Positions 13,053 through 55,158 of a DNA stretch of 64,000 nt are shown here, in pieces (within the stretch, counting starts at the first letter, position 1; the number at the start of each line of letters is the position of its first letter). The DNA is from an uncultured Thermoanaerobaculia bacterium (GTDB lineage: Bacteria; Acidobacteriota; Thermoanaerobaculia; Multivoradales; CAZRFU01), in NCBI GenBank assembly GCA_964599475.1, contig CAZRFU010000008.1, forward strand, positions 34,409-98,408, written 5' to 3'. A model generated the notes under the pieces. The model was not told where the DNA came from, did no database searches, and was given only the letters and a program-made list of their open reading frames with translations. Made by a program: the position numbers and the translations under genes.

Positions 13053-13127
13053 GGTATTGGGGAATGGGTATTGGGTATTGGGTATTGGGAATGGGGAATG
13101 GGGAATGGGTATCGGGTACCCGGTACC
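13053..13127. repeat. Heptanucleotide tandem array (GGTATTG / GGGAATG / GGTACCC units, about 10.7 units)
   Basis: Direct reading: ggtattg gggaatg ggtattg ggtattg ggtattg ggaatgg ggaatgg ggaatgg gtatcgg gtacccg gtacc. It sits between the divergent lipA and arsC starts. Confidence 0.9.
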
Positions 13128-13146
13128 TCCGGGATAGGCTTGGCCC

Positions 13147-13560
13147 ATGCCGACCACCACTCCCCCCCTCCGCCTCCTCTTCGTCTGCGTCGAAAACTCC
13201 AACCGCAGCCAGATGGCCGAGGCCTTTGCCCGGATCTTGGGCGGCGACGCGGTTGTGGCGGCCAGTGCCGGATCGCGACCGTCCGGCAAGGTCAACCCCA
13301 AGGCCATCGCGGCGATGGCCGAGCTCGGCTACGACCTCTCGACCCACCACTCGACCGGCCTCGACGCCATCGCCGACGGCACCTGGGACGCCGTCGTCAC
13401 CATGGGTTGTGGCGATGAATGCCCTTTCGTCCCCGCTCGAGTCCGCGAGGACTGGCAGATCCCCGACCCGCGCGCGCTCGACGGCGACGCCTTCCGCGCC
13501 GTTCGGGATCGCGTGCGGACCGAGGTCGCCGGACTTCTGGGCCGCCTTGGGAGGAGGTAG
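13147..13560 (+). CDS. arsC: Arsenate reductase, LMW-PTPase (thioredoxin-coupled ArsC) family
   Basis: Active-site loop LFVCVENSNRSQMAE (CX5R-S), downstream CGDEC cysteines and DP motif. 137 aa. Confidence 0.85.
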   Translation: MPTTTPPLRLLFVCVENSNRSQMAEAFARILGGDAVVAASAGSRPSGKVNPKAIAAMAELGYDLSTHHSTGLDAIADGTWDAVVTMGCGDECPFVPARVREDWQIPDPRALDGDAFRAVRDRVRTEVAGLLGRLGRR

Positions 13561-13611
13561 GGCACTCCGGAGTCGAACATCACTAGGCGCATCATGATGT
13601 AGCATCATTGC

Positions 13612-13842
13612 ATGCGCACCACCGTGGACATCCCCGAGCACTTGCTGGTCGAAGCCAAGAAGCTTGCAGCCGAGCGGCGGGTGCCGGTCACTCGACTGTT
13701 CGAGGAGAGCCTGAGGGGCTACCTCGCCGAGCAACGTTCGGTGAAACGAACGACCCCTCCCCCGCTTCCGGTGCTCACGGCGCCGGTGCCCCTAGCAGGG
13801 ATCGACCTCAACGACACCAGCCGGCTTTGGGAGCTCGAGTGA
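13612..13842 (+). CDS. vapB: VapB-type antitoxin
   Basis: 76 aa starting MRTTVDIPEHLLVEAKKLAAERR, the typical N-terminus of the VapB antitoxin family paired with this VapC class. Stop overlaps the downstream GTG (GTGA). Confidence 0.7.
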   Translation: MRTTVDIPEHLLVEAKKLAAERRVPVTRLFEESLRGYLAEQRSVKRTTPPPLPVLTAPVPLAGIDLNDTSRLWELE

Positions 13843-14267
13843 TCCTCTGCGACGTTGGGGTCTATCTCAACGCGATGTTCGAGCGCAGCGAACATCACCG
13901 CGCCTGCCGACAGGCGCTCGAGCACCTCAGGACCACCCCTTCCGGGATGGCCGTCAGTGAGCTGATTCTCGCAGCAGTGGTCAGGATCGGTTCCAATCCA
14001 CGCCTGTTCCAGCCGGCGCCACTGCCGGAAGAGGTCTTCGAGTTCGTCGACGCGATCCGCACCTTGCCAGGCGTCCGAACAGTATGCCCCGGCCCGCGTC
14101 ACTGGCAGCTGTTGCGCGACCTCGTGCGCGGGGCGAACATCGTCGGCAGCGACACGACCGACGCCTACCTTGCCGCGCTCGCAGTCGAAGCCGGCTGCGA
14201 ATGGTGGACCACCGATCGAGGCTTCGCTCGGTTTCCCGGACTCCGGTGGCGCAATCTCATCGCCTGA
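13839..14267 (+). CDS. vapC: PIN-domain toxin VapC
   Basis: 142 aa. VILCDVGVYLNAMFERSEHH N-terminus and C-terminal SDTTDAYLAALAVEAGCEWWTTDRGFARF, typical of the VapC family whose N-terminal acidic residue follows V/I-L-L-D. Confidence 0.8.
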   Translation: MILCDVGVYLNAMFERSEHHRACRQALEHLRTTPSGMAVSELILAAVVRIGSNPRLFQPAPLPEEVFEFVDAIRTLPGVRTVCPGPRHWQLLRDLVRGANIVGSDTTDAYLAALAVEAGCEWWTTDRGFARFPGLRWRNLIA

Positions 14268-14348
14268 GGTGCCTCGCTCGACGGACGCCACCGACCCGCT
14301 CTGATCGCTGACCGATCGGGCAGCCGACGGACGCGGACGGCCTCCGTC

Positions 14349-14382
14349 GGGTCCCTGGTCCCGGATCCCGGGTCCCGGGTCC
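14349..14382. repeat. Heptanucleotide tandem array (GGGTCCC / GGATCCC units, about 5 units)
   Basis: gggtccc tggtccc ggatccc gggtccc gggtcc. It directly abuts the stop codon of the RND permease, between convergent genes. Confidence 0.85.
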
Positions 14383-17300
14383 TACGCCGCCTCCTCCTGC
14401 GCCTGGACGACCAATGCCTCGGCCTCCTCGGCGGTGAGAACCTTGCGCTGCTTGGCAGCGACGACACGGTAGATCGGCGGGATGACGTAGAGGGTCAACA
14501 CCGTGCCGATGGCCATGCCGCCGATGATCGCGATGCCCATCGGCACGCGGCTTTCAGACCCGGCGCCGAGAGCAAGCGCAATCGGCAGGGTGCCAAGGAT
14601 GGTCGAGAGGCTGGTCATCAACACCGGGCGGAAGCGCGCGGCTGCGGCCTCGCGGATCGCCTCGTCGATCGACAGGCCGGCGTCTCGCCGCTGGTTGGCG
14701 AACTCGACGATCAGGATGCCGTTTTTGGTGACCAGGCCGATCAACATGATCATGCCGATCTCGCTGAAGATGTTGAGGGTCTTGCCGAACATCCACAGAC
14801 CGCCGAGCGCCCCCGCGAGCGCGAGCGGCACCGCCAACATGATCACGAAGGGGTCGCGGAAGCTCTCGAACTGGGCGGCCAGCACGAGGTAGACGAGCAA
14901 CAGGGCGAGACCGAAGATGAAGCCGAGGCTGCTCGAGCTCTCGGCAAAGTCGCGCGACAGGCCCGACAACGCCGTCGAGAAGGTCTCGTCGAGGGTCTCC
15001 TCGGCGATGCGTTCCATCTCCGCGATGCCGTCGCCGAGCGCGTAACCGGGCGCAAGGTCGGCCGACACCGTGGCGGCCAGGTACCGGCTGTAGCGATAGA
15101 GCTGCGGCGGGCTGCTCTCCTCGCGCACCCGAACCACCTTGTCGAGCAGGACCGGGGTACCGCTCGACGAACGCACAGAGAGGTTGCGCAAATCCGTCGT
15201 CTCGTCGCGCCGATCGCGCTCGACCTGGCCGACGACCTCGAACTGCTTGCCGTCCATGACGAAGTAGCCGAGGCGCTGCTCCGACAGCGCCAGTTGCAGG
15301 GTCTGAGCGACGTCGAGCGCCGACACGCCGAGATCTCGGGCCCGAGCCCGGTCGATCTCGAGGCGCAACTCCGGTTTGTCGAAGCGCAGATCGACGTCGA
15401 CGAAGGAGAACACCGGGCTCTGGCCGGCCGCCTCCATGAACCGCGGCACCGCCTCCTTGAGCTTGGCCATGTTGGGCGCCTGGAGCACGAACGACACCGG
15501 CAGACCACCACGGCGACCGACCGAAATCGTCGGTTCCTGGATCACCACCGTGCGCGCGCCCGTCAGATTGCGGACCCGCCGCGTCAGGTCGTTGGCAACC
15601 TCCATCTGGCTGCGCTCGCGATGTTCTGGATCGACCAGAATCAGCCGCAGGAACGCCGAGTTGACCGAGCTCGAAGCACCGAAGCCGGGTGAGGTCACGG
15701 TGAGGATCACCTCGCGCTCCGCTTCCGGCACCGCCTCGGAGACCAGCTGGGTCAGCTGGTCGACGTACTGGTCCATGTAGGCGAACGTCACCCCTTCGGG
15801 CGCACGCACCTGGAAGCGCATCTGCGATCGATCCTCGAGCGGCGCCAGCTCCTGCGGGATCTGCGGGAACAGGAACATCACGATCCCCAAGCAGCCGGCG
15901 ATGATCGCCCACGCCACCCAGCCGCGCTCGATCACCGCTCCGAGGCTACGTCGATAGGTCGAGGTCAAGGCTTCGAAGAACGGTTCGGTGGCGCGGTAGA
16001 GCGCGGGCTGCCGCTCGCGCTTCTTGAGGATGCGGCTCGCGAGCATCGAGGTCAGACTCAAGGCAACGAACGAGGAGATCGCCACCGCCACCGACAACGT
16101 CACGCCGAACTCGCGGAACAGCCGCCCGGTCAAGCCGCCGAGGAAGAGAATCGGCAGCAGCACCGAAATCAGCGCGATGGTGGTCGAGATGACGGCAAAG
16201 AAGATCTCCCGCGTGCCCTGGAGGCCGGCGGCGATCGGCGGCATCCCGGCTTCGATCTTGGCGTAGATGTTCTCGAGAACCACGATCGCGTCGTCGACCA
16301 CGATGCCGATCGCGAGCACCAGACCCAACAAGGTCAGGACGTTGATCGAGAAGCCCAGGAGCCAGAGGGCAAAGAAGGTGCCGATCAGCGACACCGGGAT
16401 CACCAGCAGCGGCACCAGCGTGGTGCGCCAGTCGCGCAGAAAGGCGAAGATCACCAACACCACCAGGAACACCGCCAGGATGATGGTCTGCTGGACTTCC
16501 TTGATCGACTCCTCGATGTACTCCGAGGTGTCGAAGAAGGTCCCGACCTCGATGTCGGCGGGGACTTCCTTCTCGATCTGGGCGACGCGCTTTTTGACCT
16601 CCTGCGCGATCTCGACGAAGTTCGCGCCGGGCTGTGGCCGAGCGACCACCGCCACCATCGGCACCCCCTCGCGCTTCAAGATGGTGCGGTCATTGCGAGG
16701 TCCGAGCTCAGCCCTGCCGATGTCTCGAAAACGCACGATCCGCGAACCTTCCTGCTTCAAGATCAGCTCGTTGAAGGCTTCGGGAGTGTCGAGTCGACCC
16801 TCGGCGCGAATGGTGAGCTCGACGTCGTCGCCTTCGATCCGGCCGGCGGGCAATTCGACACTTTCGCGTTGGAAGGCCGAGCGCACGTCGAGCAGGGTGA
16901 GGCCGTAGGCCGCGAGGCGCTGCGGATCGATCCACAAGCGCATGGCAAAGGTGCGCGAGCCCCAGATGTCGACCTGGGCGACGTCGTTGATGGTCTGCAG
17001 GCGTTCGACGAACGTTTCGTCCGCCAGCCGCGTCAGCTCGAGGAGGTTGCGCTGGCTGCTCTGGACGGTGATGCCCACCACCGGCGGCGAGTCGGAGTCG
17101 GCCTTCTGCACCTGCGGCGGATTGACGTCGGGCGGGAGTTGGCCAACCGCCGCCGCGACGCGGTCGCGGACGTCGTTGGCGGCGCGCTCGAGATCGGCAC
17201 CGAGCTCGAATTCGACGGTGATGGTCGAGCGCCCCTCGCGCGACACCGAGGTCAACGTGCGAATGCCCGCGACGGCGTTGACCGCCCGTTCGAGCGGTTC

Positions 17301-17492: not shown

Positions 17493-18565
17493 GGCGCACC
17501 TCCTTCGCGCGGAGCGACCTCGAGACCCGGGCGCAGGCGTTCGATCGCCGAGACGATCACCACGTCACCAGCCGACAGCCCCGAGGTCACCTCGATCACG
17601 TCCGGCAACCTGATCCCGGTTTCGACCGGCACCGGCACGGCTTTGCCACCGCGGACGACGAACACCTTCTTGCCGCCGAGCTCGGGGATCACCGCCACGT
17701 TCGGTACCAGCAGCGCATCGGGCACATCGCGCACCGCCACCTCGACGTCGGCAAAACCGCCCGGCACCAACTTCCCTTGCGGGTTGGCGGCGCGGGCGCG
17801 ATACACCACCGAACGGGTCGCCTGATCGACCACCGGCTCGATCGCGTAGATCGTCGCGGTCAGCGTCTCCTCGATGCCGCGCACGCGGAAGTCGACCTCA
17901 TCGCCCACCTCCACCGCGTCGGCGTAGGCCTCGGGCAGAGCAAAGTCGAGCTTGATCGGATCGAGATCCTGGAGGGAAGCGATCACGTCCCCCATGCTGA
18001 GGAAAGCCCCAGGGGAGACCGCGCGCAAGCCGATCGTGCCCGCGAAGGGTGCTCGCACCTCGCTCTTCTCGAGCTGAGCTTCGGCCAACACCAACTCCGC
18101 CCGCAGGACGTTGGCCTCGGACAGGGCTGCGTCGTATTCGCTCTGGCTGGTCAGGCCGTCGCGGAGCAACTCTTGCTGCCGACGTTCGCGCAACTCAGCG
18201 AGCTGCAGGCGGTGGAAGGCCCGATCGCGTTCGGCTGCGACCCGCCGCCGGTCGATGCGCACCAGCGTGGCACCCCGTTCCACCCGACTGCCCTCACGAA
18301 ACAACACCTCCTCGAGCTCGCCGGCGATCTCCGCCACCAGCTCGACCTGCTCGTTGGCGCGCAGGGTTCCCGTGGTCGACAGCCTCTCGTCTGCTTGCCG
18401 GGGCTCGACTCGCACCACGTCGACCGCGAGCGGCGGCGCCGCCGCCGGAGGTCCGCCGCCGGGGGCCGAAGCCGGGTCGGGAGTGCCCTCCCCACAGCCG
18501 ACCACCACCACGACCAACGCGCCACTGACGATCCGCAGAATCCTGGACATGTCAACCATCCTCAC
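17489..18565 (-). CDS. RND efflux periplasmic adaptor (membrane fusion protein), lipoprotein
   Basis: Lipobox VVVVGC. Alpha-hairpin coiled coil (AELVLAEAQLEKSEVRAPFAG) and beta-barrel domain. Stop overlaps the permease start (ATGA). Confidence 0.9.
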   Translation of the reverse strand: MRMVDMSRILRIVSGALVVVVVGCGEGTPDPASAPGGGPPAAAPPLAVDVVRVEPRQADERLSTTGTLRANEQVELVAEIAGELEEVLFREGSRVERGATLVRIDRRRVAAERDRAFHRLQLAELRERRQQELLRDGLTSQSEYDAALSEANVLRAELVLAEAQLEKSEVRAPFAGTIGLRAVSPGAFLSMGDVIASLQDLDPIKLDFALPEAYADAVEVGDEVDFRVRGIEETLTATIYAIEPVVDQATRSVVYRARAANPQGKLVPGGFADVEVAVRDVPDALLVPNVAVIPELGGKKVFVVRGGKAVPVPVETGIRLPDVIEVTSGLSAGDVVIVSAIERLRPGLEVAPREGGAP

Positions 18566-18621
18566 GAAAAGAAACCCGGCGATCCGCAGGCGGCCCGCCG
18601 GGTCGTGCTCTCAATCGAAAT

Positions 18622-20745
18622 CTACTCGAAAACCGCCGGGTCGAACGCCGGATCGATCTCGAACTTGGTCAGCGACGAACGTCCGATCGGGTCGCCATCG
18701 ACCTTGATCAGCTGTTCGTGCGGCACCTGCCGTCCACCGACCTCCTGGTAGCCCAAGAGCTCGACCTCGACCGCGCCGGGCGCGCCCGTCAGCGGGTTGA
18801 CGCCGGCGTAACGCTGGAAGGCCACGGTGCCGTCCGCTGCGACCAGGATTTCGCTCTCGGCGCCGCGGTACTTGACCACCAGGGTCTCGTAGGTCGTCCC
18901 GTTGACTTCCTGTGGCTGACCGGCGAGCGCCTCGAGGGCCGGATCGTCGGCGTAACGGACGATGGTGCGCAGATCGCGACCCAAGTCCTGCAGCTGCTTG
19001 GCGACCATTTCGGCCGGCATGTCGCGGCGCTGGCCACCCATCTCCATCCAGCCGCGATCGCCAACGATCACCTGGGTCTGTTCACCCATGGGGCTGCGCA
19101 CGACCTCACGGATGCGATCCGGGAACACCGTCAGGCTGGTCCGCGCGAGGCCGATCTGTTGGCCCTGGAGCGACACCGTCAGGGTCGCCTCCGAGGCGAT
19201 CGCCTTGACCGCAGCAGCGTCAGGCCCGCCCATGGCAGCAACCACCCTCGCGAGCAGCGCCTTGCCTGCGGCGACACTGGCGTCACTGGTCTCGACGTGG
19301 GCGGTCTTGACCTCCGGCGGCGGAATGGTGATGTCGACGTTCTCGACGGTGCCGAAATCCGACAGCGGCCGGTCGTAGCCTTCGGGGTTGCCGGCGACCA
19401 GGATCACCATCTCCTCCGGCCGCAGGCGCGCCTGGGCCGCCGCGAGAACTTCCTCGGCGGTCACCGACTCGACCCGCTTCTGGTACTGCTCGAGAAAGTC
19501 CGCCGGCAGGCCCTGGTACAGGTAACTCATGCGTTGCGCCAGCACCTGCGACTTCGAGGCGTAGTTGAAGACGAAGCCGTTGAGGATCGACTCCTTGGCG
19601 CGCGCCATCTCATCCGCCTCGGGAGCCGCCGCGCGCATCTTGGCGACCTCCTCCTGGAGCGCCGCAATCGCCGCCCCGACGGTCGAGAATTTGGTCGACA
19701 TGGTCAACGTCATGGTGCCGGGATAGGCAAACCCGGCGCCGACGCCGCCGCCGACCGAGTAGGCCAGACCCTTCTCGGAACGCACGTTCTTGAACAGGCG
19801 ACCGGCGAACCCACCACCCAAGACCTCGTTCATCACCTGCACGGCGAAGTAGTCGGGGTCGGTGATCCGCATCCCCAGGTGCCCAACGCGGATTTGTGCC
19901 TGGTTGACATCGGTCTTGGTCACCGACAGCACTCGCGGCCCGGCCTGACTGGTGGGCTCCGCGGCAAGCGACGCCGGGTCCGGCCCCCGCTTCCAATCAC
20001 CGAAGGTCTTGGTGAGCTTCGCCAGCATCGCCTTCGGCTCGAAGTCGCCGACGACCCCGAGGATCGTTGCATTGGGGTGGAAGGCGCCTGCATGGAACGC
20101 GATCAAGTCGTCGCGGGTGATGGCGTTGAGCGTCGAGTATTCGGTCTGGCGTCCCATGGCGCTGTCTGCGCCGTAGATCGCCCGGCGGAACTCACGCGAG
20201 GCGATGCCGCCGACGTTGTCGTTGCGCCGCGCGATGCCGCTCTTGGCCTGGACTTTGGCCAGGTCGACCTTGTCCTCGGCAAACGCAGGGAAGCGCAACA
20301 CGTCGTTGAACAGCGGCAGGACGAAGTCGAAGTCCTGGCTGAGACACGACATCGTGACGTTGCCCGAGGTCTCGCCGATCGAGGCTTCGATCGATGCGGC
20401 TCGCGCCTCGAGCAGCAGGTCGAGCTCGTCCCCGCTGTGGTTCTTGGTTCCGCCGATGCGCTGCACCGCGCCGGTCAGGCCGGCGAGCCCGGTCTTGTCG
20501 GCCGGATCGAACAGACCGCCGGTGCGCACCATCGCTCGCGCCGTGATCAGCGGCAGCTCGCGATCGACCATCAGCATCACGGTCAAGCCGTTCGGCAGGG
20601 TATGGACTTCGGGCTTGGGAATGTCGAAGCTGCGGATGTCGGGGAAGGTCAACTGCTCGGGGCGTTCGACCTGGGCCGCCACCGGCAGCGCGGCGAGAGG
20701 AAGCAGCAGCGCAACAGCGCTCGTTCGGACGGAAAGCATGCTCAT
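18622..20745 (-). CDS. M16-family (pitrilysin/insulinase-like) peptidase, non-catalytic-type subunit, with extra C-terminal domain
   Basis: Signal peptide MSMLSVRTSAVALLLPLAALPVAAQ. M16 fold pattern without an obvious HxxEH motif. ATG at 20745 overlaps the upstream stop (ATGA). Confidence 0.85.
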   Translation of the reverse strand: MSMLSVRTSAVALLLPLAALPVAAQVERPEQLTFPDIRSFDIPKPEVHTLPNGLTVMLMVDRELPLITARAMVRTGGLFDPADKTGLAGLTGAVQRIGGTKNHSGDELDLLLEARAASIEASIGETSGNVTMSCLSQDFDFVLPLFNDVLRFPAFAEDKVDLAKVQAKSGIARRNDNVGGIASREFRRAIYGADSAMGRQTEYSTLNAITRDDLIAFHAGAFHPNATILGVVGDFEPKAMLAKLTKTFGDWKRGPDPASLAAEPTSQAGPRVLSVTKTDVNQAQIRVGHLGMRITDPDYFAVQVMNEVLGGGFAGRLFKNVRSEKGLAYSVGGGVGAGFAYPGTMTLTMSTKFSTVGAAIAALQEEVAKMRAAAPEADEMARAKESILNGFVFNYASKSQVLAQRMSYLYQGLPADFLEQYQKRVESVTAEEVLAAAQARLRPEEMVILVAGNPEGYDRPLSDFGTVENVDITIPPPEVKTAHVETSDASVAAGKALLARVVAAMGGPDAAAVKAIASEATLTVSLQGQQIGLARTSLTVFPDRIREVVRSPMGEQTQVIVGDRGWMEMGGQRRDMPAEMVAKQLQDLGRDLRTIVRYADDPALEALAGQPQEVNGTTYETLVVKYRGAESEILVAADGTVAFQRYAGVNPLTGAPGAVEVELLGYQEVGGRQVPHEQLIKVDGDPIGRSSLTKFEIDPAFDPAVFE

Positions 20746-25826: not shown

Positions 25827-25852
25827 GGTACCGGGTACTGGGTACTGGGTAC
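25827..25852. repeat. Heptanucleotide tandem array (GGTACCG / GGTACTG units, about 3.7 units)
   Basis: ggtaccg ggtactg ggtactg ggtac, 63 nt downstream of the leuS stop. Intergenic. Confidence 0.8.
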
Positions 25853-26037
25853 TTTCGGAGGCTGGTATTGCCCGCGCCGTTGGCGCTTCGGATTGTGGCG
25901 CCTGAGTTCGGGCCAAAGGCCCGACCCATACCAGCCCAGGGTGAAGCCCTGGGTGGCAGCGCCCTCCCTCGACGCGGAATCGGTGCGGCGCGGCCATCCT
26001 GAGCCGTGATTGTGGGCCGGTGTAGGCTCGCTCGGCC

Positions 26038-26649: not shown

Positions 26650-26693
26650 GAATCGCAGCACTGACCTGCGGCGGCACCCTGTAGACTGCGGCC

Positions 26694-29340: not shown

Positions 29341-29507
29341 CGCGAAGACCTCCGCCCACCATTCTAGGAGTGCGCGAGGTTGGCAGCCTAACGCGGCGAC
29401 CGCAAGCAAAGTCGGGAGAAGATCCGGACTCGGAAGAAGATCTTTTGGCTCGGGCGACGTTGGTTCAGGTCGTTGACCACGCTTCGCGGTGGTTGTGGCG
29501 CTTCCCC

Positions 29508-29641
29508 GTCGCGCAGTCGCGAGCGGCACGGTGACCGCTGCTGTTTCGGCGCGCGCGCGTGCAGCGAGGCCACTCCGACGGAAACCACCGAGCCGAGCGT
29601 AGCGGAGCGCACGACCTCACGCCCTAGCGGAGGCGAGCCGC
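29508..29641 (+). repeat. Mosaic intergenic repeat, 134-nt core, copy A (flanking modules from about 29418)
   Basis: gtcgcgcagtcgc.agcggcac...gcgcgcgcgcgtgcagcgaggcc...gacggaaaccaccgagccgagcgtagcggagcgcacgacctcacgccc. Near-identical to 34737-34870 and 54897-55030. An upstream module ccggactcggaagaagatcttttgg is shared with copies C and D. Confidence 0.85.
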
Positions 29642-29659
29642 CGACGCCGCCGTCCTCCC

Positions 29660-31055: not shown

Positions 31056-31122
31056 CGGCGCAATGGACCCTCGGTGGTGCGCAGCGGGTTGAATGCAATC
31101 GGGCCGTCGGGGGACCACTTGC

Positions 31123-31150
31123 CGGGTACCGGGTACCGGGTACCGGGTAC
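31123..31150. repeat. Perfect 4x heptanucleotide array (CGGGTAC)x4
   Basis: cgggtac cgggtac cgggtac cgggtac. Bracketed by a 9-nt direct repeat acttgccgg (31117-31125 and 31149-31157). Intergenic. Confidence 0.9.
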
Positions 31151-33090: not shown

Positions 33091-34170
33091 ATGGTGACGA
33101 GGGAAGGTGTCGGAGACCCAGTGGGCGATCATGCTCGCAGCCAGGTCCGAGAGTACCCGGTACCCGATACCCGGTACCTCGAGCCCACACGCGAGGACCT
33201 GGCCCAGGGAGGACAACGCCCCGACCTTCTGACGGCGGGTGCGGCTCTGGCCCTCTTCCTCGTCTGGAGCAACACCTTCGTGGCGATCTCCTTCCTGCTC
33301 GGTCGCGAAGGCCAACCGGCCCGGCTCGACTGGCTCGAGCTGACCGTCGCGCGTTTCCTGCCGGTGGTGGTGGTGTGTGCCGCGATCGTCGCCTGGCGCT
33401 CGCGCGAGGCGGTGGCGATCCTGCGGCGCCACCCCGGCCGCCTGGTGGCCTGTGGCCTCGCCGCTGTGCCCTGCTACAACCTCGCGCTCTACTGGGGTCA
33501 GGCGCACGGCGTGCCGGCGCCGATCGCGTCGCTCACGACCACACTCGCCCCACTGCTGATGGTGGCGCTCGCCCACTTCACGCTCGGCGAGTCGATCAGC
33601 CGACGCAAGGTGGTCGGGCTGCTCGTGTGCCTCGCCGGCATCGCCGTCGTCAGCCTCGCCCGCTCGGGCGAAGGTGGCAAGGCCTACCCGCTGGTGGTGG
33701 CGGTGACCGCGCTTGCCCCCCTGTGCTGGTCGCTCTTTTCGACCTGGACCAAACCGGTCGCCGGAACCGTCCCGAGTGATCTGTGGACATGGCTGGTGAT
33801 CCTCGTCGGTTCGGTGCCGCTGGTGGCGATCGCACCCTGGCACGGCGGGCCGGCACTGCTGCGCCTCGATGCGGTCGGTTGGGCCGCGATCTTGTTCCTC
33901 GCCCTGCTCGCAACCGTCGGCGGTTTCGCCACCTGGACCTGGTTGCTGCGGCGCCTCCCGGCCTCGACCGTTGGGCTCACCGTGTTCCTCAATCCCCCGC
34001 TCACCACCCTTTCGAAGGTCGTGCTGGCGGCGACCTTCCCGGCAGCCTTCGTCTTTTCGATCACCACCCTCGAATGGATCGGCGGGGCGATCGTGCTCGG
34101 CGGCCTCGCCATCGCTCTCCTCCCGGGCCGGCCGCGGCGCGGCTCCGGCGTTACCGTTTCCACCGCCTAG
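33091..34170 (+). CDS. EamA/DMT-superfamily transporter
   Basis: Ten predicted TM helices with a duplicated EamA pattern. The start is uncertain: ATG 33091 lies upstream of a heptamer array (33153-33178), so the true start may be a non-ATG codon near 33200-33230. Confidence 0.75.
   Translation: MVTREGVGDPVGDHARSQVREYPVPDTRYLEPTREDLAQGGQRPDLLTAGAALALFLVWSNTFVAISFLLGREGQPARLDWLELTVARFLPVVVVCAAIVAWRSREAVAILRRHPGRLVACGLAAVPCYNLALYWGQAHGVPAPIASLTTTLAPLLMVALAHFTLGESISRRKVVGLLVCLAGIAVVSLARSGEGGKAYPLVVAVTALAPLCWSLFSTWTKPVAGTVPSDLWTWLVILVGSVPLVAIAPWHGGPALLRLDAVGWAAILFLALLATVGGFATWTWLLRRLPASTVGLTVFLNPPLTTLSKVVLAATFPAAFVFSITTLEWIGGAIVLGGLAIALLPGRPRRGSGVTVSTA
33153..33178. repeat. Heptanucleotide tandem array (GTACCCG / ATACCCG units)
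   Basis: gtacccg gtacccg atacccg gtacc, between the nitrilase stop and the hydrophobic body of the EamA gene. Confidence 0.8.
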
Positions 34171-34182
34171 GGATTCCGACGA

Positions 34183-34201
34183 GTCCCCGGTACCCGGTAC
34201 C
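34183..34201. repeat. Short heptanucleotide array (about 2.5 units)
   Basis: gtccccg gtacccg gtacc, 13 nt after the EamA stop, directly preceding mosaic repeat copy C. Confidence 0.6.
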
Positions 34202-35020: not shown

Positions 35021-35053
35021 CGGGGCAAGCCACTGACAGCACTCTGGGAGAGC

Positions 35054-44362: not shown

Positions 44363-44716
44363 AAGCCGCTGGTCCACTTCGACCATTCGCCAGGTACGGA
44401 AGCTCCGCTGTGGTCACCCGAGCCTTCGCCGCGCTCACACAGCTGCCTGCTCTGGTCGGTGTCACCCCTCTCGAGAAGCGTTCCCGGACCCGCGAGCGCG
44501 CTTCCGCGATCCTCGAGGCAATCGAGTGCGTCGCCCAGGCGGTGCTTCCGCAATGAGCTGGGAGGCGAAGGATGCGAGAGCCAGAGGGTCCACCGCCCTT
44601 GCCTGGCTTAGGTGTCCGACAGCGTGTGCCATGGTAGCCTTCCCAGTAAAGACTCATGACGCATCGGCAGCCCTCGGCACAATTGCCACGGTGACAGGGA
44701 GCCAGAGGAGATCGAC

Positions 44717-46096
44717 ATGTGGCGCCACCACCTCCGCAGCGCAACTGCTGCCGTTTCTCTGCTCCTGCTCGCCCAGTCGGTAGCGGCCGGCGCAGAGAGC
44801 CTCGCCACCGAAACCGAACAGAGGGCTGCTGCCGGTGCAGCGAGGGTTGGAGCCGGGATTGAACAGGACCTCGTGCCACCGCCACTCCTGGCGCGGCCGG
44901 CACCTGAAACCAGCAATCGCTTCTGGTTCACCGGCCATGAGCACGACCCGGCCACCGGCCTGATCTACGCAGGAGCGCGCTACTACGACCCCTCCATCGG
45001 TAGATTCATCTCGGCCGATCCCTTCCCTGGCTTCGCCGATGTCCCTGCGAGTCTCAACAAGTACCTCTACGCCCACGGCAATCCGACGGTCTACGTCGAT
45101 CCAGACGGTCGGCTGGCGATCGTGCCGATTCTTCTCGCCGGAGCTCTCGGAGCCGAGATCGGTTTCTTCGCGGATCTGATCGTGCAGGAGATCGAGCACG
45201 GTGCCACCGACATCGGCTCGTTTCTGCGCAACGACTACGATCCTGTGAGAGGCGTTCTCAGCACCGCCGCCGGCGCGGTTTCGGGAGGCGTCGGCGGCGG
45301 TCTTGCACAGGCGGGTGTTCGCACGTCCGTCGCAGTGGCGACCTCCCTGACCGTCGACAGCGCCCTTGACACCGGAATCGAGATTGCGACGCTCGAGCCC
45401 GGCCAAAGGCCCGATCTCGCCCGCAGGTTTGGTACCAATCTCGCGGTGAACACCGCCATGTTGGGCGTGGCGACCGGTGCCGCGAGGCTCCTGCCGTCGC
45501 GGGCGGGTGCCACCACCTTGATCGAAGAGTCTACCAGCGGCCCCGGCACAGGAAACTTCTCGCAATCGTCGTTCACGGCACCGGCCGGCGTCGACGAGGT
45601 CTCGCAAGTCCTTGGCAGCCGCCCGACTCTGTCGATCGCGCAAGCGCGTGCTCTTCCGCAACCCCATCGTGGCGTGATCCTGGTACGCGAGCCGCCCCTG
45701 CCCGCTACCGCCTCGGCGGCCCGACGGGTCGCCGCGGACTTCGAGTCGGGGACGCATGGGACCCTGTCCGATCCAGCCACTCGTGAGCGCATTGTGCCAG
45801 CGATTCGGTTCGACAACCCGAACCCAGCAGGCTCGAACTTCGTCAAGCTGGACGGCCTGGAGAGCGCAACGCGCCTCATCGACGCAAAGACTCGGCTGTT
45901 GACGTTCACCTCGCGGGGTACCCAGCTCTTCCCTCAGCGCGGTGACCTGCGCCGGCTCAGCGAGGCAGTTCGACAGAATCCCGGTCTGGAGGTGATCCTC
46001 GAGTTCCCTGACGCGCGTTCGCTCCGGGAAGCGCGGCAGCTTCTCCTGGAAAGCGGCATCACCAACCTACGAACCCGGCTGCGGGGAACACCATGA
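44717..46096 (+). CDS. RHS repeat-associated core domain protein with Sec signal peptide and C-terminal PD-(D/E)xK-like toxin domain (mini-Rhs polymorphic toxin)
   Basis: Signal peptide MWRHHLRSATAAVSLLLLAQSVAAGA. RHS core FTGHEHDPATGLIYAGARYYDPSIGRFISADP...NKYLYAHGNPTVYVDPDGR (aa 68-132). Gly-rich hydrophobic segments. C-terminus VPAIRFDNPNPAGSNFVKLDGLESATRLIDAKT. GAGGAG RBS. Confidence 0.85.
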   Translation: MWRHHLRSATAAVSLLLLAQSVAAGAESLATETEQRAAAGAARVGAGIEQDLVPPPLLARPAPETSNRFWFTGHEHDPATGLIYAGARYYDPSIGRFISADPFPGFADVPASLNKYLYAHGNPTVYVDPDGRLAIVPILLAGALGAEIGFFADLIVQEIEHGATDIGSFLRNDYDPVRGVLSTAAGAVSGGVGGGLAQAGVRTSVAVATSLTVDSALDTGIEIATLEPGQRPDLARRFGTNLAVNTAMLGVATGAARLLPSRAGATTLIEESTSGPGTGNFSQSSFTAPAGVDEVSQVLGSRPTLSIAQARALPQPHRGVILVREPPLPATASAARRVAADFESGTHGTLSDPATRERIVPAIRFDNPNPAGSNFVKLDGLESATRLIDAKTRLLTFTSRGTQLFPQRGDLRRLSEAVRQNPGLEVILEFPDARSLREARQLLLESGITNLRTRLRGTP

Positions 46097-46139: not shown

Positions 46140-46838
46140 ATGCTGAACGGCGCTGGGACAAACGCCAGCTGGCTGCTGGCGCGCTCGCGACCAGTCGTCG
46201 GGGAGCCGTTGCCGGAGCACCACCACCGAGTCGCTCGCGCAGTAGCCGGGCTGCCCCCCGCCTGGCGCCCCATGCCAGGCTTTGCCGACGCGCTGCCAGA
46301 AATCGGCGATGAACTGAGTACGACCGCGGAACTAGGCATCCTGCCAAGCGCCCTGGCTCGCCTCACCTACGTCTATCGATCAGGCCAGTACCTTCGAGAC
46401 GCTGCCGAGTTCGACGACGTACTCTCCATGCGTTCGGAGCTCGATCTGGACGCCTATCTCCAATGGGCCCACGTCGTGGCGCCGACCTGGATCTCAGCGC
46501 TGCCGGCCTACCGCGCTGCAATCTTCACGGACATCGACCTGGCCCTCGACGATTGGGACCGGGCCGGTTCCCGAGGAGCAGAAACTGGCCGGGACGAAGA
46601 CGGGCGAGACTCGGTCTTCCGAATCTGGCCCGTCAGCTTCTGGGACCGCGAGCTGTGCCGACGTGCCTGGGGGCTTTCACCCGAGCGAATCGCGACCGCG
46701 CTCGCACCGCTGGTTCAGGAGACGCAGCTGATTGCCGATGGCATCCTGGTCATTACGAGCGATCGGATACCCACGCGCGACGAGGTCATTGCGACCAGTG
46801 ACCTTCTGCTGGCGGTCTTGGCCGAGGCCAAAGGCTGA
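46140..46838 (+). CDS. Hypothetical protein, candidate immunity protein 1 (paralogue of 46861-47613)
   Basis: Sits immediately downstream of the Rhs toxin. Shares YLRDAA.(F/Y)DD and an about 65-aa near-identical C-terminal block (DSVFRIWPVSFWD.ELCRRAWGLSPE...LIADG.LVIT.DRIP.RDEVIATSD) with the next gene. Confidence 0.6.
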   Translation: MLNGAGTNASWLLARSRPVVGEPLPEHHHRVARAVAGLPPAWRPMPGFADALPEIGDELSTTAELGILPSALARLTYVYRSGQYLRDAAEFDDVLSMRSELDLDAYLQWAHVVAPTWISALPAYRAAIFTDIDLALDDWDRAGSRGAETGRDEDGRDSVFRIWPVSFWDRELCRRAWGLSPERIATALAPLVQETQLIADGILVITSDRIPTRDEVIATSDLLLAVLAEAKG

Positions 46839-46860: not shown

Positions 46861-47613
46861 GTGACCAGGCAGTACTTCAGCGACCGAGCTGCGCTCCCTG
46901 TCTCGCCCGAGTTCCGGGCGAGGCCCAGACTCGACCTCTCAGCTGAGGATCTGCACCGACAGATCGTTGGAGCCCTGGAGGGCGCTCCGCCGCCCTGGGG
47001 ACTGACCAGCGCGGCCTCGAGTCCGGCGACAGAGGATCTCGTCACCATCTTTCCGCTGACTTTCCAGACTCAGCCAGCCCCGGTCGAGATCCTCGAAAGC
47101 CATCTCTCCTACGCGCTGCGCAGCGCCGCCTACTTGAGAGACGCAGCGCAATACGATGACCAGCTGGTCTTGCGCTTCGTTCCGGCTCCGAACGCAAGCT
47201 TGGGGACCTTGGGTGAGTGGGTGGCCAATTCCGCGCAGATCATGGGCGCCTATCGAGGGGCCCTGGTGGTTGACGAAGAGCTCGCCGCTGACGACTGGGA
47301 AGCGTGCATGCGCCTTGGCCGAGACGGCGTTCGTGACGTCGATGGGCGCGACTCGGTCTTCCGAATTTGGCCCGTCAGCTTCTGGGACACCGAGCTCTGC
47401 CGACGTGCCTGGGGGCTCTCACCCGAGCACGTCGCAACGGTGCTCGCCCCGCTGGTGCAGGAGTCTCGGCTGATCGCCGATGGTGTTCTGGTCATCACGA
47501 CCGATCGGATCCCCAGTCGCGACGAGGTCATCGCGACGAGCGACCGGCTTCAGGTGGCGCTGACCGCTGCTGCGGCCGAGGGGCGACTCCGAAAGGAGGA
47601 AGCGAGCTCGTGA
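46861..47613 (+). CDS. Hypothetical protein, candidate immunity protein 2 (tandem paralogue)
   Basis: GTG 46861 is chosen as the first in-frame start after the upstream stop (the track ORF begins at 46732 inside the previous gene). The C-terminal 196-nt block 47350-47545 aligns without gaps to 46608-46803. Confidence 0.6.
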   Translation: MTRQYFSDRAALPVSPEFRARPRLDLSAEDLHRQIVGALEGAPPPWGLTSAASSPATEDLVTIFPLTFQTQPAPVEILESHLSYALRSAAYLRDAAQYDDQLVLRFVPAPNASLGTLGEWVANSAQIMGAYRGALVVDEELAADDWEACMRLGRDGVRDVDGRDSVFRIWPVSFWDTELCRRAWGLSPEHVATVLAPLVQESRLIADGVLVITTDRIPSRDEVIATSDRLQVALTAAAAEGRLRKEEASS

Positions 47614-52141: not shown

Positions 52142-52160
52142 CGCGTGAGTGTAGCGGGAA

Positions 52161-52218
52161 CGGGGACCAGGGACCGGGAAACAGGGACCCGGGACCGGGG
52201 ACCGGGGACCAGGGAACG
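52161..52218. repeat. Heptanucleotide tandem array (GGGACCN units, about 8 units)
   Basis: cggggac cagggac cgggaaa cagggac ccgggac cggggac cggggac cagggaa cgg, in the divergent amidase/dinB intergenic region. Confidence 0.85.
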
Positions 52219-52268: not shown

Positions 52269-52282
52269 TGTAGCCTTCCCAG

Positions 52283-53398
52283 GTGACCCCCGAGCGCCGC
52301 ATTCTCCACTGCGACATGGACTGCTTCTACGCCGCGGTCCATGTTCGCGACGACCCGTCGCTGCGCGGCAAGCCGGTGGTGGTGGGGGGCAGTCCCTCAG
52401 GGCGCGGGGTGATCGCAGCGGCAAGCTACGAGGCGCGAGCGTTTGGGGTCCATTCGGCGATGCCGGCAGCCCGAGCGGTTCGCCTTTGCCCCCAGGCGGT
52501 GTTCATCCGCCCCGACTTCGGCCGCTACACAGCCGAGTCCAAAGCGATCTTCGCAATCTATGCGCGCTTCACCGATCGCATCCAACCGGCGTCGCTGGAC
52601 GAGGCCTACCTCGATGTCACCGAGCGGCTCGACCCCTGGGGCAGTGCCACGGCGATCGCGCGGGAGATCCGCCGCCTGGTGCTCGAGGAGCGTCGGCTGA
52701 CCGTCAGTGTCGGGGTCGGCCCCAACAAGCTGGTCGCCAAGATCGCCTCGGACTTTCGCAAGCCCGACGGCCTCACCGTCGTCCGGCCAGAACGCGTCGA
52801 GGAGTTCCTCGCGCCGCTGCCCGTGCGACGCCTGCACGGCGTCGGTCCAGCGACCGAGCGGGTGCTGCTCGAGCTCGGAATCGAGAAGGTCGGCGATCTT
52901 CGGCGCATCGACCCCGAGCTGCTGCGCCAACGCTTCGGGCGCCACGGACCGCTGCTGCAGCGTTACGCCTGGGGCCAGGACGACCGTGGGGTCGAAACCG
53001 ACCGGGTGCGCAAGAGTCTCGGCAGCGAAACGACCTTTGCCCTCGACCTCGAAGGGCTCGAAGCGATCGAGGGAGCGCTCGCACCCTTGGCCGACGACAT
53101 CGCCCAGGGCCTCGCCAAACGCGAGCTCGCCACCCGCGGGGTTTCGCTCAAGGTGCGCTACCGCGGCTTCGAGACCGTCACCCGTGCCCTGTCGTTGCGC
53201 TCCCCGGTCGCCGACGCCGAGACCCTGCTCGCGCTGGCGCGTCGCCTGCTGCAACGGACCGATGCCGCACAGCGGCCCGTGCGCCTGCTCGGAATCACCG
53301 CCACCCAATTGGTCAGCCGCGACGGTCCGCGGCAGCTCGATCTCTTCTCCACGCTCACCGCCGATGACCTCTCCGGGGCGACGATGGAGGAGCCATGA
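52283..53398 (+). CDS. dinB: DNA polymerase IV (Y-family)
   Basis: ILHCDMDCFYAAVHVRDDPSLRGKPVVVGG, SLDEAYLDVT, VSVGVGPNKLVAKIASD motifs. GTG start. Confidence 0.93.
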   Translation: MTPERRILHCDMDCFYAAVHVRDDPSLRGKPVVVGGSPSGRGVIAAASYEARAFGVHSAMPAARAVRLCPQAVFIRPDFGRYTAESKAIFAIYARFTDRIQPASLDEAYLDVTERLDPWGSATAIAREIRRLVLEERRLTVSVGVGPNKLVAKIASDFRKPDGLTVVRPERVEEFLAPLPVRRLHGVGPATERVLLELGIEKVGDLRRIDPELLRQRFGRHGPLLQRYAWGQDDRGVETDRVRKSLGSETTFALDLEGLEAIEGALAPLADDIAQGLAKRELATRGVSLKVRYRGFETVTRALSLRSPVADAETLLALARRLLQRTDAAQRPVRLLGITATQLVSRDGPRQLDLFSTLTADDLSGATMEEP

Positions 53399-54552
53399 GA
53401 CCGGCGCTCCTCCGGGTGGTCGTTGCGGTGGTCGTGACGGCGCTGATGTGGGCCGCGACGACACCCACGACCCACGAAGGGGGCTGGGACGCCGACGGCC
53501 GCCACTACGCGGCGATGGCCGGCGTTGAGGGCTTCTCGATCCACATCGGCCAAGTCGGCCCGTGGTGCTACCGCATCCTGACCCCCGCGATCGTCGCCCT
53601 GCTGCCGCTCGAGCCCATGGGAGGATTCACCCTCGTCACGTTCGTCGCCAACGTCGCCAACCTAGTGCTGCTCGATCTGCTGCTGCTCGGCGCCGGGATC
53701 TCCGGGCGCCGAGCACGCCTGGTTGCGCTCGCTCTGTGGACCACGAGCTTCTGGACCCTGCGGTTTTCGTTCTACTCCCCTGCCTACATCGACGCGCCGA
53801 CCATCACCGTCCTGCTCGCCGGTTTGGTTCTGGCTCTGCGGCGCCGATGGTTCGGGTGCCTGCTGGTGTTCACCGTCGGTGTGCTGCAGAAGGAGTCGCT
53901 CGCGGCCTTCGCGCTCGCCCCCGCGGTGATGGTCTGGCAGGACCAGCACCTCGGGTGGTTTCACCGACGCCTCTTGGCCCTCGGCTTCGGCGTGGCACCC
54001 TTCGCGGTCGCGTGGGCGATTCGGTGGGCGATCGACGCTCCCGGCTTCTCGACCTGGACCGTACTCGAGGGTGAGCTTCGCGCCTTGGCGTCGGCGGCCG
54101 GAATGCTCGATCTGACTGCGGCAATGTTCGCCGGCCTCGGCCTCTTGCCGGCTGTGGTCCTGGTCGGTTGGAGGTCGGTGCTCGGGCTCGGGCGCCGCCA
54201 TGCGGGCCTGGCAGTCGCCGCCGTCGTGGCAGCCTCGACCGTGGTCGGCGGCGTCGACAAGTCGCGGCCCTTCCTCTACCTGCTCCCTCTCGTCCTCCTC
54301 GTCGCCGCCGACCTGGTCGAGCGCTGGAAGCCTCCACACCGCGGGCTCTGGCTGTGGTGCACCGTCTGCGTGGTCGGCCAGGCAGCGCTCGCAGGCCTCT
54401 TCGACCCCACACCGAGCTTCGAGCTCTTCCTCACCCGCTTCGTGCCCGAGCACGCGGACTTCGCGGCCCATCGGCCATCCCTGGTCGCCGCGGTGGCGCT
54501 CAATGTCGTCGTGCTGGTCGCGGGTGTGTGGATTCGCAGGGAAAGGGACTGA
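53395..54552 (+). CDS. Polytopic integral membrane protein (GT-C-like or unknown function)
   Basis: 385 aa with about 10 hydrophobic helices. ATG overlaps the dinB stop (ATGA). No family recognised with confidence. Confidence 0.6.
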   Translation: MRPALLRVVVAVVVTALMWAATTPTTHEGGWDADGRHYAAMAGVEGFSIHIGQVGPWCYRILTPAIVALLPLEPMGGFTLVTFVANVANLVLLDLLLLGAGISGRRARLVALALWTTSFWTLRFSFYSPAYIDAPTITVLLAGLVLALRRRWFGCLLVFTVGVLQKESLAAFALAPAVMVWQDQHLGWFHRRLLALGFGVAPFAVAWAIRWAIDAPGFSTWTVLEGELRALASAAGMLDLTAAMFAGLGLLPAVVLVGWRSVLGLGRRHAGLAVAAVVAASTVVGGVDKSRPFLYLLPLVLLVAADLVERWKPPHRGLWLWCTVCVVGQAALAGLFDPTPSFELFLTRFVPEHADFAAHRPSLVAAVALNVVVLVAGVWIRRERD

Positions 54553-54568
54553 GGGACCAACGCGGCAA

Positions 54569-55110
54569 CCGCAACCGAAGCCGGAACCCAGACCCGGACT
54601 CGGAACAAGATCTTTGGTTCGGAGAATAGCCGCACCCTCGCCCTGCTCGCTGACCGGCGGTCGGTCGAGGAGAAGGGAGACCAGGATCCTGGGAGTTCCG
54701 GGATCCGGGAGGAGATCGTGCAGCGTTCCGGTGTACGGGCAGCGGAAGCGCCCCAGGTGCGCGTGGCAGCGCGCACCTCTTGGTGGTGTGCCCGTCGTCA
54801 ACGTCGCAGCCCGGATGGCGGGAGTCGACGAGGGTTCGCAGCGGTGTTCGAGCCGAAGCGCCAAGGCGTGAGGTCGTGTGCGAAGCGGCGTCGCGCGTCG
54901 CGCAGTCGCAAGCGGCACGGTGGCCGCGGCCGATTCGGCGCGCGCGCGTGCAGCGAGGCCAGTCAGACGGAAACCACCGAGCCGAGCGTAGCGGAGCACA
55001 CGACCTCACGGCCAAGCGCAGGCGAGCCTCTGACGGTGCGGTCTTCGAGCTTCGGAACCCGCTGCCGTGCGAGAACAGCTCGAAAAGCCGCAGAACGCGT
55101 GACATCTGGC
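54569..55110 (+). repeat. Mosaic intergenic repeat, copy D (about 540 nt)
   Basis: Collinear with copy C (see 34249-35020). Core at 54897-55030. Contains hairpin repeat copy 2 at 54756-54777. Followed directly by heptamer array 55125-55158. Confidence 0.85.
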
Positions 55111-55124
55111 GGGGTGAGCTCCTC

Positions 55125-55158
55125 ATACCCAATACCCAATACCCAATCCCCAATACCC
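55125..55158. repeat. Heptanucleotide tandem array (CCAATAC units, about 5 units)
   Basis: catacc caatacc caatacc caatccc caataccc, ending 22 nt upstream of the AAA+ ATPase start. Confidence 0.85.

Follow-up and report, generated by a model that had tools for sequence, protein, structure and literature searches.

What role, if any, do tandem heptanucleotide arrays play in the short gaps between bacterial genes? This question is raised by a 64,000-nt stretch of DNA from an uncultured Thermoanaerobaculia bacterium (assembly GCA_964599475.1, contig CAZRFU010000008.1, positions 34,409 to 98,408), here called the window, to which all array coordinates refer. A first-pass annotation of the window had listed a dispersed family of arrays with units such as GGGTACC, GGGTATC and GGGACCC. 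We find that these arrays sit at the outer edges of transcription units and that their G-rich or purine-rich strand, read 5′ to 3′, points away from the nearest gene. They almost certainly belong to the class of G-rich heptameric simple sequence repeats (SSRs) described from Xanthomonas and Nostoc, and their placement leads us to favor, tentatively, the idea that they act as strand-asymmetric transcription boundary elements.

Twelve period-7 arrays in the non-coding DNA of the window

Tandem Repeats Finder (TRF) identified period-7 repeats at all 12 coordinates that had been listed, and our own period detector (match +1, mismatch −3, score of at least 10) supported the family as a whole. Run on the window, the detector returned 12 arrays at period 7 and only 0 to 2 at every other period from 4 to 12, while dinucleotide-preserving shuffles of the window (n = 100) gave on average 0.19 period-7 arrays and never more than 1. 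Eleven of its 12 hits are family members, the remaining one being an unrelated GCCACCA ×2.4 repeat in a coding sequence at 7055; the short array at 34183 scores under the threshold and was called from TRF. The first-pass annotation had spoken of at least 13 arrays while listing 12, and neither its regular expression nor a G3N4 search uncovered a thirteenth family member in the window. The heptamer arrays are a statistically solid feature.

Genes were called by codon-usage score and their starts were then refined. The resulting calls match JGI/Logan calls on overlapping sister contigs for the phosphatase, amidase, dinB (on one of two contigs) and AAA ATPase genes. By these calls, the window is 89% coding and 10.9% non-coding, and the arrays, which total 448 nt, make up 6.4% of the 6,949 non-coding nucleotides. 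All 12 lie outside called genes, so that the earlier description of the family as strictly intergenic held with two reservations: array 14349 overlaps a stop codon by 1 nt, and array 33153 is possibly located within the EamA open reading frame (ORF).

Arrays abut −10 boxes and stop codons with opposite strand polarity

Gene starts in the window fall into two classes, those with a strong Shine-Dalgarno sequence (GGAGG) and those with none, which are instead preceded by a box of the form TAGCCT, TAGGCT, TAGACT, TACAGT or TAGCAT. A TANNNT box stands at −12 or −13 from a start codon without a Shine-Dalgarno sequence in 8 of 48 genes, with a ninth at −15 (the gene at 26038), whereas base composition predicts about 0.4 such genes by chance. 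These boxes suggest that leaderless mRNAs with a TGTAGSCT-like −10 box are probably widespread in the organism.

At five putative promoters, those of the lipA, phosphatase, amidase, dinB and AAA ATPase genes, an array ends 2 to 9 nt upstream of the −10 box; four of these belong to the counted TANNNT genes, and the fifth is that of the amidase gene, whose start we moved to 52141. Two Shine-Dalgarno-led genes also have upstream arrays, located 43 to 48 nt from the start codon, a distance that is consistent with a −10 box just past the array and a short 5′ untranslated region (UTR). The other arrays follow genes, at 3, 12, 62 and 67 nt past stop codons or, in one case, overlapping the stop codon. 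Thus, the candidate roles narrow to those at transcription-unit borders.

The polarity of the arrays reverses between these two positions. Upstream of promoters, the coding strand of the gene is the C-rich strand of the array in five of five unambiguous cases, and past stop codons it is the G-rich strand in three of four. Together with loci from related genomes (L001, L002, L018, L025/L026 and L083), where 10 of 10 classifiable arrays follow the same rule, 18 of 19 cases agree (8/9 of them from the window; binomial P ~4e-5). L001 contributes three arrays, two of which follow stop codons by 4 and 5 nt while the third precedes a start codon by 38 nt, a TACAAT box separating array and start; L002 contributes two, L025/L026 two (GGGGGAT) and L018 one (CTTCTTG). 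The last two come from L083 (positions 4092-4198; a Thermoanaerobaculales metagenome-assembled genome), in which an inverted AT-rich pair, (TTATGAG)4/(TCATCAT)4, lacks G-runs altogether and begins 0 and 16 nt past two convergent stop codons, placed as in the window. Across the window and the related loci, 8 of the 13 stop-proximal arrays lie 0 to 16 nt from the stop. The polarity flip is not what a one-directional mutation bias of replication or transcription would give, and a cause linked to which way transcription runs with respect to the gene is more likely.

A scan for consensus sigma-70 promoters over 25-40 kb found none, and no terminator-like site adjoins any array, which indicates that canonical Escherichia coli signals do not account for the arrays. 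We also considered whether the arrays supply a −35 element; read by eye, the hexamers that lie within the arrays 17 nt upstream of the −10 boxes do not resemble TTGACA, and we rejected this idea.

The arrays belong to a known class of G-rich heptameric SSRs

Rehm et al. (2015) described GGGNATC repeats in Xanthomonas (X. campestris, X. citri) and GGGGAYT repeats in Nostoc PCC 7120, with about 180 arrays per genome, 89 to 93% of them intergenic, 2 to 26 units per array (mode four) and frequent convergent inverted pairs (PMC4692102). Upstream arrays of this class lie within 50 bp of the gene with the G strand non-coding, and downstream arrays lie within 50 bp of the stop codon or overlap it with the G strand coding; the repeats coincide with starts or stops of transcripts more often than control sites do (PMC4692102). 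Between the Xanthomonas genomes Xcc and Xac, 83% of repeat positions are conserved while lengths vary, and the adjacent genes share no functional class (PMC4692102).

Every one of these features that can be tested on sequence recurs in the window, and on this basis we assign its arrays to the same class. They are tandem 7-nt units with a G3 (or G4) tract, over-represented at period 7 and biased to non-coding DNA; they obey the same placement and strand rule and include convergent inverted pairs; their unit numbers run from 2 to over 10, most often about 4 to 5; their length and sequence vary while their position is kept; and their neighbors form no functional class. The first-pass annotation, which compared the family with cyanobacterial heptamers, did not name this closest class. 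The differences lie in the units (GGGTAYC, GGGTATT and GGGACCC, in many cases a palindrome of 6 bp with one base added, a form that favors hairpins), in the host, which is Acidobacteriota-like rather than a gammaproteobacterium or cyanobacterium, and in two array regions between divergent genes, a class that is under-represented in Xanthomonas. A further difference is that only half of the window arrays fit the G-quadruplex (G4) motif, and their G4 potential is a prediction from sequence. Our finding is therefore not new in kind; what is new is the lineage and the units.

Table 1. Arrays and −10-type boxes of the window. Unit counts are approximate unless marked perfect; G4 motif, canonical G3+N1-7 pattern; z, hairpin folding energy against shuffles; LMW, low-molecular-weight; ABC, ATP-binding cassette; L and X numbers denote related loci and metagenomes.
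Position	G-rich strand	Units	Placement	Folding and G4 motif	Length in related sequences
13053..13127	+	~10.7 GGGTATT/GGGGAAT, ending GGGTATC GGGTACC CGGTACC; terminal palindromic units reverse polarity	Occupies the gap between divergent lipA-like (minus) and LMW phosphatase (plus) genes; start 9 nt from lipA −10 box (TACAGT, 13038-13043, minus strand), end 7 nt ahead of phosphatase −10 box (TAGGCT, 13135-13140)	G4 motif; z = −3.4	
14349..14382	−	~5 GGGACCC/GGGATCC (minus-strand reading)	Between convergent genes; 1-nt overlap with acrB-like stop codon, 81 nt past PIN gene stop	G4 motif (minus strand)	Unchanged in sister strain L080; X1 contig 7 nt shorter somewhere in 13203-14600, exact place not resolved
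25827..25852	+	~3.9 GGGTACT/GGGTACC	62 nt past leuS stop; coding strand = G-rich strand	z = −3.4; only 3 G3 tracts	Equal in L080, one substitution
31123..31150	+	4 perfect GGGTACC	67 nt past stop of small ORF	G4 motif	X2, X4 and X7 contigs 7 nt shorter, indel not localized to array
33153..33178	−	~3.7 GGTACCC/GATACCC (plus-strand reading)	81 nt past CN-hydrolase stop; upstream of EamA transporter gene, or its codons 11-20 if GTG 33121, its sole in-frame canonical start, is used	z = −3.8	Constant across four metagenomes
34183..34201	−	~2.7 GGTACCC (plus-strand reading), short	12 nt past EamA stop		
36545..36577	+	~4 GGGTACT/GGGTATC	Left arm of inverted pair; 48 nt upstream of Shine-Dalgarno-led start of beta-helix gene (minus); C-rich strand = coding strand		
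36688..36732	−	~6 GGGTATC (minus-strand reading)	Right arm of inverted pair; begins 3 nt past stop of ABC-2 permease gene (minus)		X4: +14 nt (CCTGATACCCGATA)
38944..38980	+	~5.3 symmetric GGGACCC/GGGATCC	43 nt upstream of ABC ATPase start (minus)	G4 motif; hairpin −34.4 kcal/mol	
52161..52218	+	~8 GGGGACC/GGGACCC/GGGACCA		G4 motif	One unit (7 nt) fewer in L084
52236..52268	−	~4.4 GATACCT/GATACCC (plus-strand reading)	End 2 nt ahead of −10 box (TAGCCT, 52271-52276) of putatively leaderless dinB (GTG 52283)	RNA unstructured	One extra GATACCT unit (7 nt) in Logan contig L087, the sole indel in 4.8 kb at 99.1% identity; +7 nt in L084; X4 contig covering 52161 and 52236 7 nt longer, not localized
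55125..55158	−	~4.9 AATACCC (plus-strand reading)	End 9 nt ahead of extended −10 box (TGGTAGCCT, hexamer 55168-55173) of putatively leaderless AAA ATPase gene (ATG 55180)	G4 motif (minus strand); RNA folding energy 0	Two units (14 nt) more in L084
TANNNT boxes			18-23, 13038-13043 (minus), 13135-13140, 13600-13605, 26023-26028, 26682-26687, 52148-52153 (minus), 52271-52276, 55168-55173		

Unit number varies while position is kept

Comparison of strains that are 94 to 99% identical leaves little doubt that the arrays are slippage-prone microsatellites that change by whole 7-nt units. Differences of ±7 and ±14 nt could be localized to arrays 36688, 52161, 52236 and 55125, of which the sister strain L084 (94 to 96% identical) spans 52161, 52236 and 55125 and differs in all three (Table 1), and the slipped-strand length change that had been proposed for the family was thereby borne out. 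Whole arrays can also come and go: array 31123 sits in a 128-nt window-specific segment (31059-31186), in place of which L080 (97.4% identical; its positions 17838-20707) carries 2.87 kb without an array, encoding an 891-amino-acid (aa) CarboxypepD_reg-repeat protein.

Such arrays are abundant in the genome as a whole. Their k-mer depth is about 7 to 150 times that of single-copy flanks, depending on the array and the run, and Logan contigs break at the arrays, with many flank-depth contigs running from the same arrays into other sequence; the genome therefore has many more such loci. In metatranscriptome contigs (X25-X27; ~2x depth, unstranded), (AATACCC)n words reach a depth of 448 to 500, compared with about 2 for the flanking genes.

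Among relatives, presence is patchy. Two loci with a 73 to 75% identical beta-helix protein (L001 and L002) carry GGG-N4 arrays with different loops (GGGCACA, GGGACTC, GGGAGCA and GGGGAAC), and in L002 the position upstream of the beta-helix gene is retained with another unit. Only four heptamer arrays occurred in 67 metagenome loci of similar G+C content (~540 kb; ABC-2 permease homologs of ≤64% identity), which served as a negative control and are not orthologous loci. The trait thus turns over fast, and period and placement outlast the sequence of the unit.

Unit sequence and folding

An alignment matrix of 65 units on the G-rich strand has G at positions 1 and 2 in 62 to 63 of them, with the rest of the G-run coming either from position 3 or from the final base of the unit before. 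The commonest of these units are GGTATCG, GGGTATT, GGTACCG, GGTATCA and GGGACCC, and the family as a whole can be written GG(G)-W-A/C-Y-N (GGGTATC, GGGTACC, GGGTATT, GGGACCC, GGGATCC). Many units consist of a 6-bp palindrome plus one base, the palindromic cores being GGTACC, GGATCC and CCCGGG, as had correctly been pointed out. An idea that such cores reflect restriction-site avoidance or decoys was rejected, as the sites outside the arrays are near Markov expectation (GGTACC, 14 observed and 14.2 expected; GGATCC, 22 and 27.7; CCCGGG, 29 and 33.6).

Predicted hairpins are stronger than those of shuffled sequences in arrays 13053, 25827 and 33153, and weaker and not clear in arrays 14349, 31123 and 38944. 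As RNA, the C-rich arrays without palindromes (GATACCC, AATACCC) have next to no structure, with predicted energies of 0 to −5 kcal/mol, and in the orientation that enters the gene the C-rich arrays contain 38 to 48% C and 0 to 28% G. Arrays 36545 and 36688 are inverted copies of one another over 31 nt (94% complementary; the 36545 arm against 36693-36723), and in a minus-strand transcript they are predicted to pair as a stem of some 32 bp with 110 nt between the arms; the predicted fold of 36530-36745 on this strand has an energy of −110.8 kcal/mol (z = −4.7). Arrays 52161 and 52236 are likewise neighbors of opposite polarity, and further loci were seen as joints of a G-array, a 26-nt spacer and a C-array.

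Boundary function or neutral by-product?

How might such an array mark the edge of a transcription unit? A polymerase leaving the gene would make G-rich or self-complementary RNA at the array, which could fold into a hairpin (from palindromic units or inverted pairs) or an RNA G4 and so provide a 3′-end or termination structure. A polymerase entering the gene, by read-through or antisense transcription, would meet a G-rich template and produce unstructured, C-rich and G-poor RNA of the type that could load Rho. Rho prefers C-rich, G-poor, unstructured RNA (rut sites). A change in unit number would then tune the boundary and not switch the gene on or off. Boundary function appears to be the reading that would cover all unit types.

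Several observations weigh against boundary function. Array 34183 is the sole breach of the strand rule, and the genes of the related loci that extend this rule were called with our own simple caller. In symmetric units (GGGACCC, GGGTACC), G and C contents are alike in both directions, so that the Rho-loading part of the mechanism is inapplicable to them. Arrays are absent from relatives at 75 to 77% protein identity (L081, L082, L088 and L089; ~80 kb), and this absence, together with the presence or absence of array 31123 between strains, implies that any function is dispensable locus by locus. Finally, the metatranscriptome contigs are too sparse to map transcript ends.

The main rival is that the arrays are neutral or selfish by-products without function, heptamer slippage having expanded chance proto-repeats in non-coding DNA, with the apparent grammar produced by local seeds, C-rich ahead of −10 boxes and G-rich behind stop codons. 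We regard this as possible but doubtful. It fits the fast turnover, in which arrays appear and vanish between strains and species: array 55125 adjoins the right end of a dispersed repeat whose paralogous copy at 34236-35040 has no array at the equivalent place, and an orthologous promoter carries a degenerate C-rich tract in L001 and a 6-unit array in L002. Nor do the flanking genes have a common function, and many prokaryotes have an excess of heptamer SSRs for which no role is known (PMC6344855, PMC4692102); in the SPADE survey, heptamers outnumbered all other tandem repeats between prokaryotic genes and offered no clue to function (PMC6344855). Against neutrality stand the polarity flip itself, seen across unrelated units and several genomes, the closeness of arrays to stop codons and −10 boxes, a strand rule common to three phyla (PMC4692102), and the retention of positions between species while units change, both between L002 and the window and between Xcc and Xac (PMC4692102).

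Boundary function can also be stated more broadly, with bacterial heptamer microsatellites forming a general, cross-phylum class of orientation-specific transcription insulators that bracket transcription units, although we consider a generalization of this breadth rather unlikely. Under it, an entering polymerase would produce pyrimidine-rich, G-poor RNA from a G-rich template, and a leaving polymerase purine- or G-rich or self-pairing RNA, and the arrays would act through Rho loading, G4 or hairpin roadblocks, or 3′-end structures. They might replace U-tract terminators in GC-rich genomes rich in leaderless mRNAs, with slippage tuning read-through at the level of strains.

G-quadruplexes, binding lattices and phase variation

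Explanations by G4 alone, by a protein lattice or by phase variation are less likely. The first of these holds that the selected property is a DNA or RNA G4 (with an i-motif opposite) that modulates promoters or stabilizes mRNA 3′ ends. The first-pass annotation had credited the arrays with G4 potential; this proved correct for the six of the 12 that match four G3+ tracts with N1-7 loops (Table 1), and did not extend to the other six, of which 36545 and 36688 reach the pattern only with an 11-nt loop and 25827, 33153, 34183 and 52236 contain three G3 tracts at most. The window holds 11 canonical G4 motifs, eight of them within the six matching arrays, and L001, L002 and L026 retain the G3N4 period with differing loops. 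Moreover, K+-dependent folding into G4 structures has been seen in vitro for (GGGAATC)3GGG and the Nostoc units, as has i-motif formation (PMC4692102). Nonetheless, G4 formation is unlikely to be the selected property, because the arrays do not have it in common: half of them do not reach four G3 tracts, and the AT- or purine-rich heptamers of relatives, L083 (TTATGAG/TCATCAT) and L018 (CTTCTTG), are placed alike without any G-run. Array 52236 is mostly AGGTATC, and the extra unit in L087 adds no G3 tract; palindromic units, furthermore, should favor duplex hairpins. The regulation by G4 that had been suggested for the family is weakened accordingly.

The arrays might instead form a protein-binding lattice, that is, iterated sites for a lineage-specific nucleoid protein or an S1/Csp/CsrA-like factor of the kind suggested for heptamers of Beggiatoaceae. 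Units are common to distant arrays of one genome and differ between genomes, and the promoter-proximal arrays accompany genes without a Shine-Dalgarno sequence, as do the TAACTGA heptamers of marine Beggiatoaceae, a single AT-rich unit present in 2 to 6 intergenic direct copies just upstream of starts without a canonical ribosome-binding site and proposed as a 5′-UTR binding site for a translational regulator (PMC4679880). The window arrays resemble the TAACTGA repeats in being intergenic heptamers near such starts, but they include a stop-proximal class and follow a G-rich strand rule, neither of which is described for TAACTGA repeats (PMC4679880). A lattice is improbable, given that one genome contains five or more unit types, that the window contains no candidate binding protein and that the fixed TANNNT box at −12 explains the missing Shine-Dalgarno sequences by leaderless transcription, which would place the arrays outside the mRNA.

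Contingency SSRs, as in Haemophilus and Neisseria, have units of 1 to 5 nt, lie inside ORFs or between −35 and −10 boxes, and are on/off switches of surface or restriction-modification genes. The window arrays share with them the slipped-strand change of unit number and, for some arrays, a promoter location; they differ in their 7-nt units, their position outside the promoter spacer (array 33153 being a possible exception if EamA starts at GTG 33121) and their housekeeping neighbors. Phase variation, by which unit number would switch or tune the adjacent gene and which the first-pass annotation had raised for spacing, is improbable even though unit number differs between close strains at the promoter-proximal arrays 52161, 52236 and 55125 and each 7-nt step turns the helical phase by ~240 degrees between divergent promoters (13053; 52161/52236), since the arrays lie upstream of the −10 box across the −35 region and not between fixed promoter elements, so that an extra unit leaves the promoter-proximal sequence and spacing intact, since four to five arrays lie past stop codons, and since the neighbors (lipA, leuS, dinB, an amiC-like gene, ABC and RND transporters) are housekeeping genes and not surface or restriction-modification genes; Rehm et al. 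likewise judged phase variation unlikely for the Xanthomonas and Nostoc repeats (PMC4692102).

Other repeat classes

The arrays are readily told apart from CRISPR elements, which have repeats of 23 to 50 nt and unique spacers, as the 7-nt units here are contiguous and without spacers. Repetitive extragenic palindromes (REPs) and the bacterial interspersed mosaic elements (BIMEs) of Enterobacteria and Pseudomonas are linked to mRNA stabilization and termination, a role similar to the one proposed here for the arrays, and REPs are single imperfect palindromes of 20 to 40 nt with a conserved head that are spread by RAYT transposases. Like the window arrays, REPs and BIMEs are abundant, extragenic, often located directly past stop codons and able to form hairpins. 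The arrays, however, are tandem head-to-tail 7-mers that change by unit slippage and lack conserved flanking heads, and no RAYT gene was seen in the window.

The short tandemly repeated repetitive (STRR) sequences of cyanobacteria come nearer, and the first-pass annotation was right to place the arrays closer to these than to REP or CRISPR elements. Both are dispersed, abundant and strain-variable tandem heptamers in non-coding DNA. The unit of STRR1 is CCCCAGT; to our knowledge, STRRs are restricted to heterocystous cyanobacteria, and we know of no positional grammar or promoter adjacency defined for them. The window arrays consist of GGGTAYC, GGGACCC and GGGTATT units and stand in a genome whose LeuRS has Acidobacteriota relatives, so they are not STRRs in this defined sense. 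Calothrix heptamers are mentioned alongside the Xanthomonas and Nostoc repeats (PMC4692102).

Host and neighboring genes

The window has a G+C content of 65 to 70%, and its DNA occurs in metagenomes of wastewater, activated sludge and bioreactors. Exact-match look-ups of two window proteins gave no hit, and the sister strains were reached through homologs. LeuRS shares 98% identity with a protein encoded on a 175-kb JGI contig and 71 to 76% with proteins labeled Acidobacteriota, Holophagae or Thermoanaerobaculales, and the named relatives of the beta-helix protein are mostly Acidobacteriota. These homologs speak against a xanthomonad origin, which was suggested by 'Lysobacteraceae/Xanthomonadaceae' labels on two related metagenome-assembled contigs (L001, P0125); the labels are probably wrong.

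The genes that flank the arrays are ordinary, encoding a lipoyl synthase, an LMW phosphatase, a PIN toxin, a resistance-nodulation-division (RND) pump, LeuRS, a CN-hydrolase, EamA, an ABC transporter pair, an amidase, DinB and an AAA ATPase. The dinB gene (52283-53398; DNA polymerase IV, IMS family) has its promoter embedded in two strain-variable arrays, and its divergent partner is the gene for an N-acetylmuramoyl-L-alanine amidase, after which comes an mreB-like gene. At 30-2096 lies the gene for a RecQ-family helicase, whose promoter is of the leaderless type. RecQ helicases unwind G4 DNA, a point of note where G3N4 arrays abound. Toxin-antitoxin-like genes were found at 13612-14267, where a 76-aa ORF and a PIN-domain (VapC-like) gene adjoin array 14349, and at 26694-27224, where an AbiEii-family nucleotidyltransferase gene lies downstream of leuS. 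The region 39740-46096, which comprises a 1,540-aa ORF followed by an RHS repeat-associated core domain gene (44873-46096), may be a polymorphic toxin locus; a direct repeat, D2 (46590-46824 / 47332-47566, 82% identical), lies just downstream.

The window also contains a dispersed, non-coding repeat that is not heptameric (34236-35040, 54559-55124, 29420-29674 and 32031-32111), two copies of which adjoin the arrays at 34183 and 55125. Over a core of some 200 nt the repeat is 85 to 90% conserved, and this core folds up as a long stem structure closed by a stem of 15 bp (GTGAGGTCGTGTGCG...CGCACGACCTCAC); the depth of the repeat in metagenome contigs is 30 to 40 times that of single-copy flanks. 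In a sister strain, a 184-aa ORF without a Pfam hit was called over this repeat by JGI. It may be an element resembling a miniature inverted-repeat transposable element (MITE) or a structured RNA. Rfam searches gave no match at gathering thresholds in the whole window and none at E ≤ 1 on 34150-35060, so that neither the arrays nor the neighboring dispersed repeat belong to known RNA families; no tRNA genes were found in the window.

Implications

The grammar described for Xanthomonas and Nostoc recurs here in a third, unrelated lineage with different units, and in relatives it recurs even for heptamers that are not G-rich. For the organism itself, the arrays are the main hotspots of insertion and deletion between strains and break short-read assemblies, and they could serve as markers of the variable-number tandem repeat (VNTR) type for strains of a wastewater organism. 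Their clean grammar, promoter adjacency and cross-phylum recurrence make the function of heptamer repeats testable.

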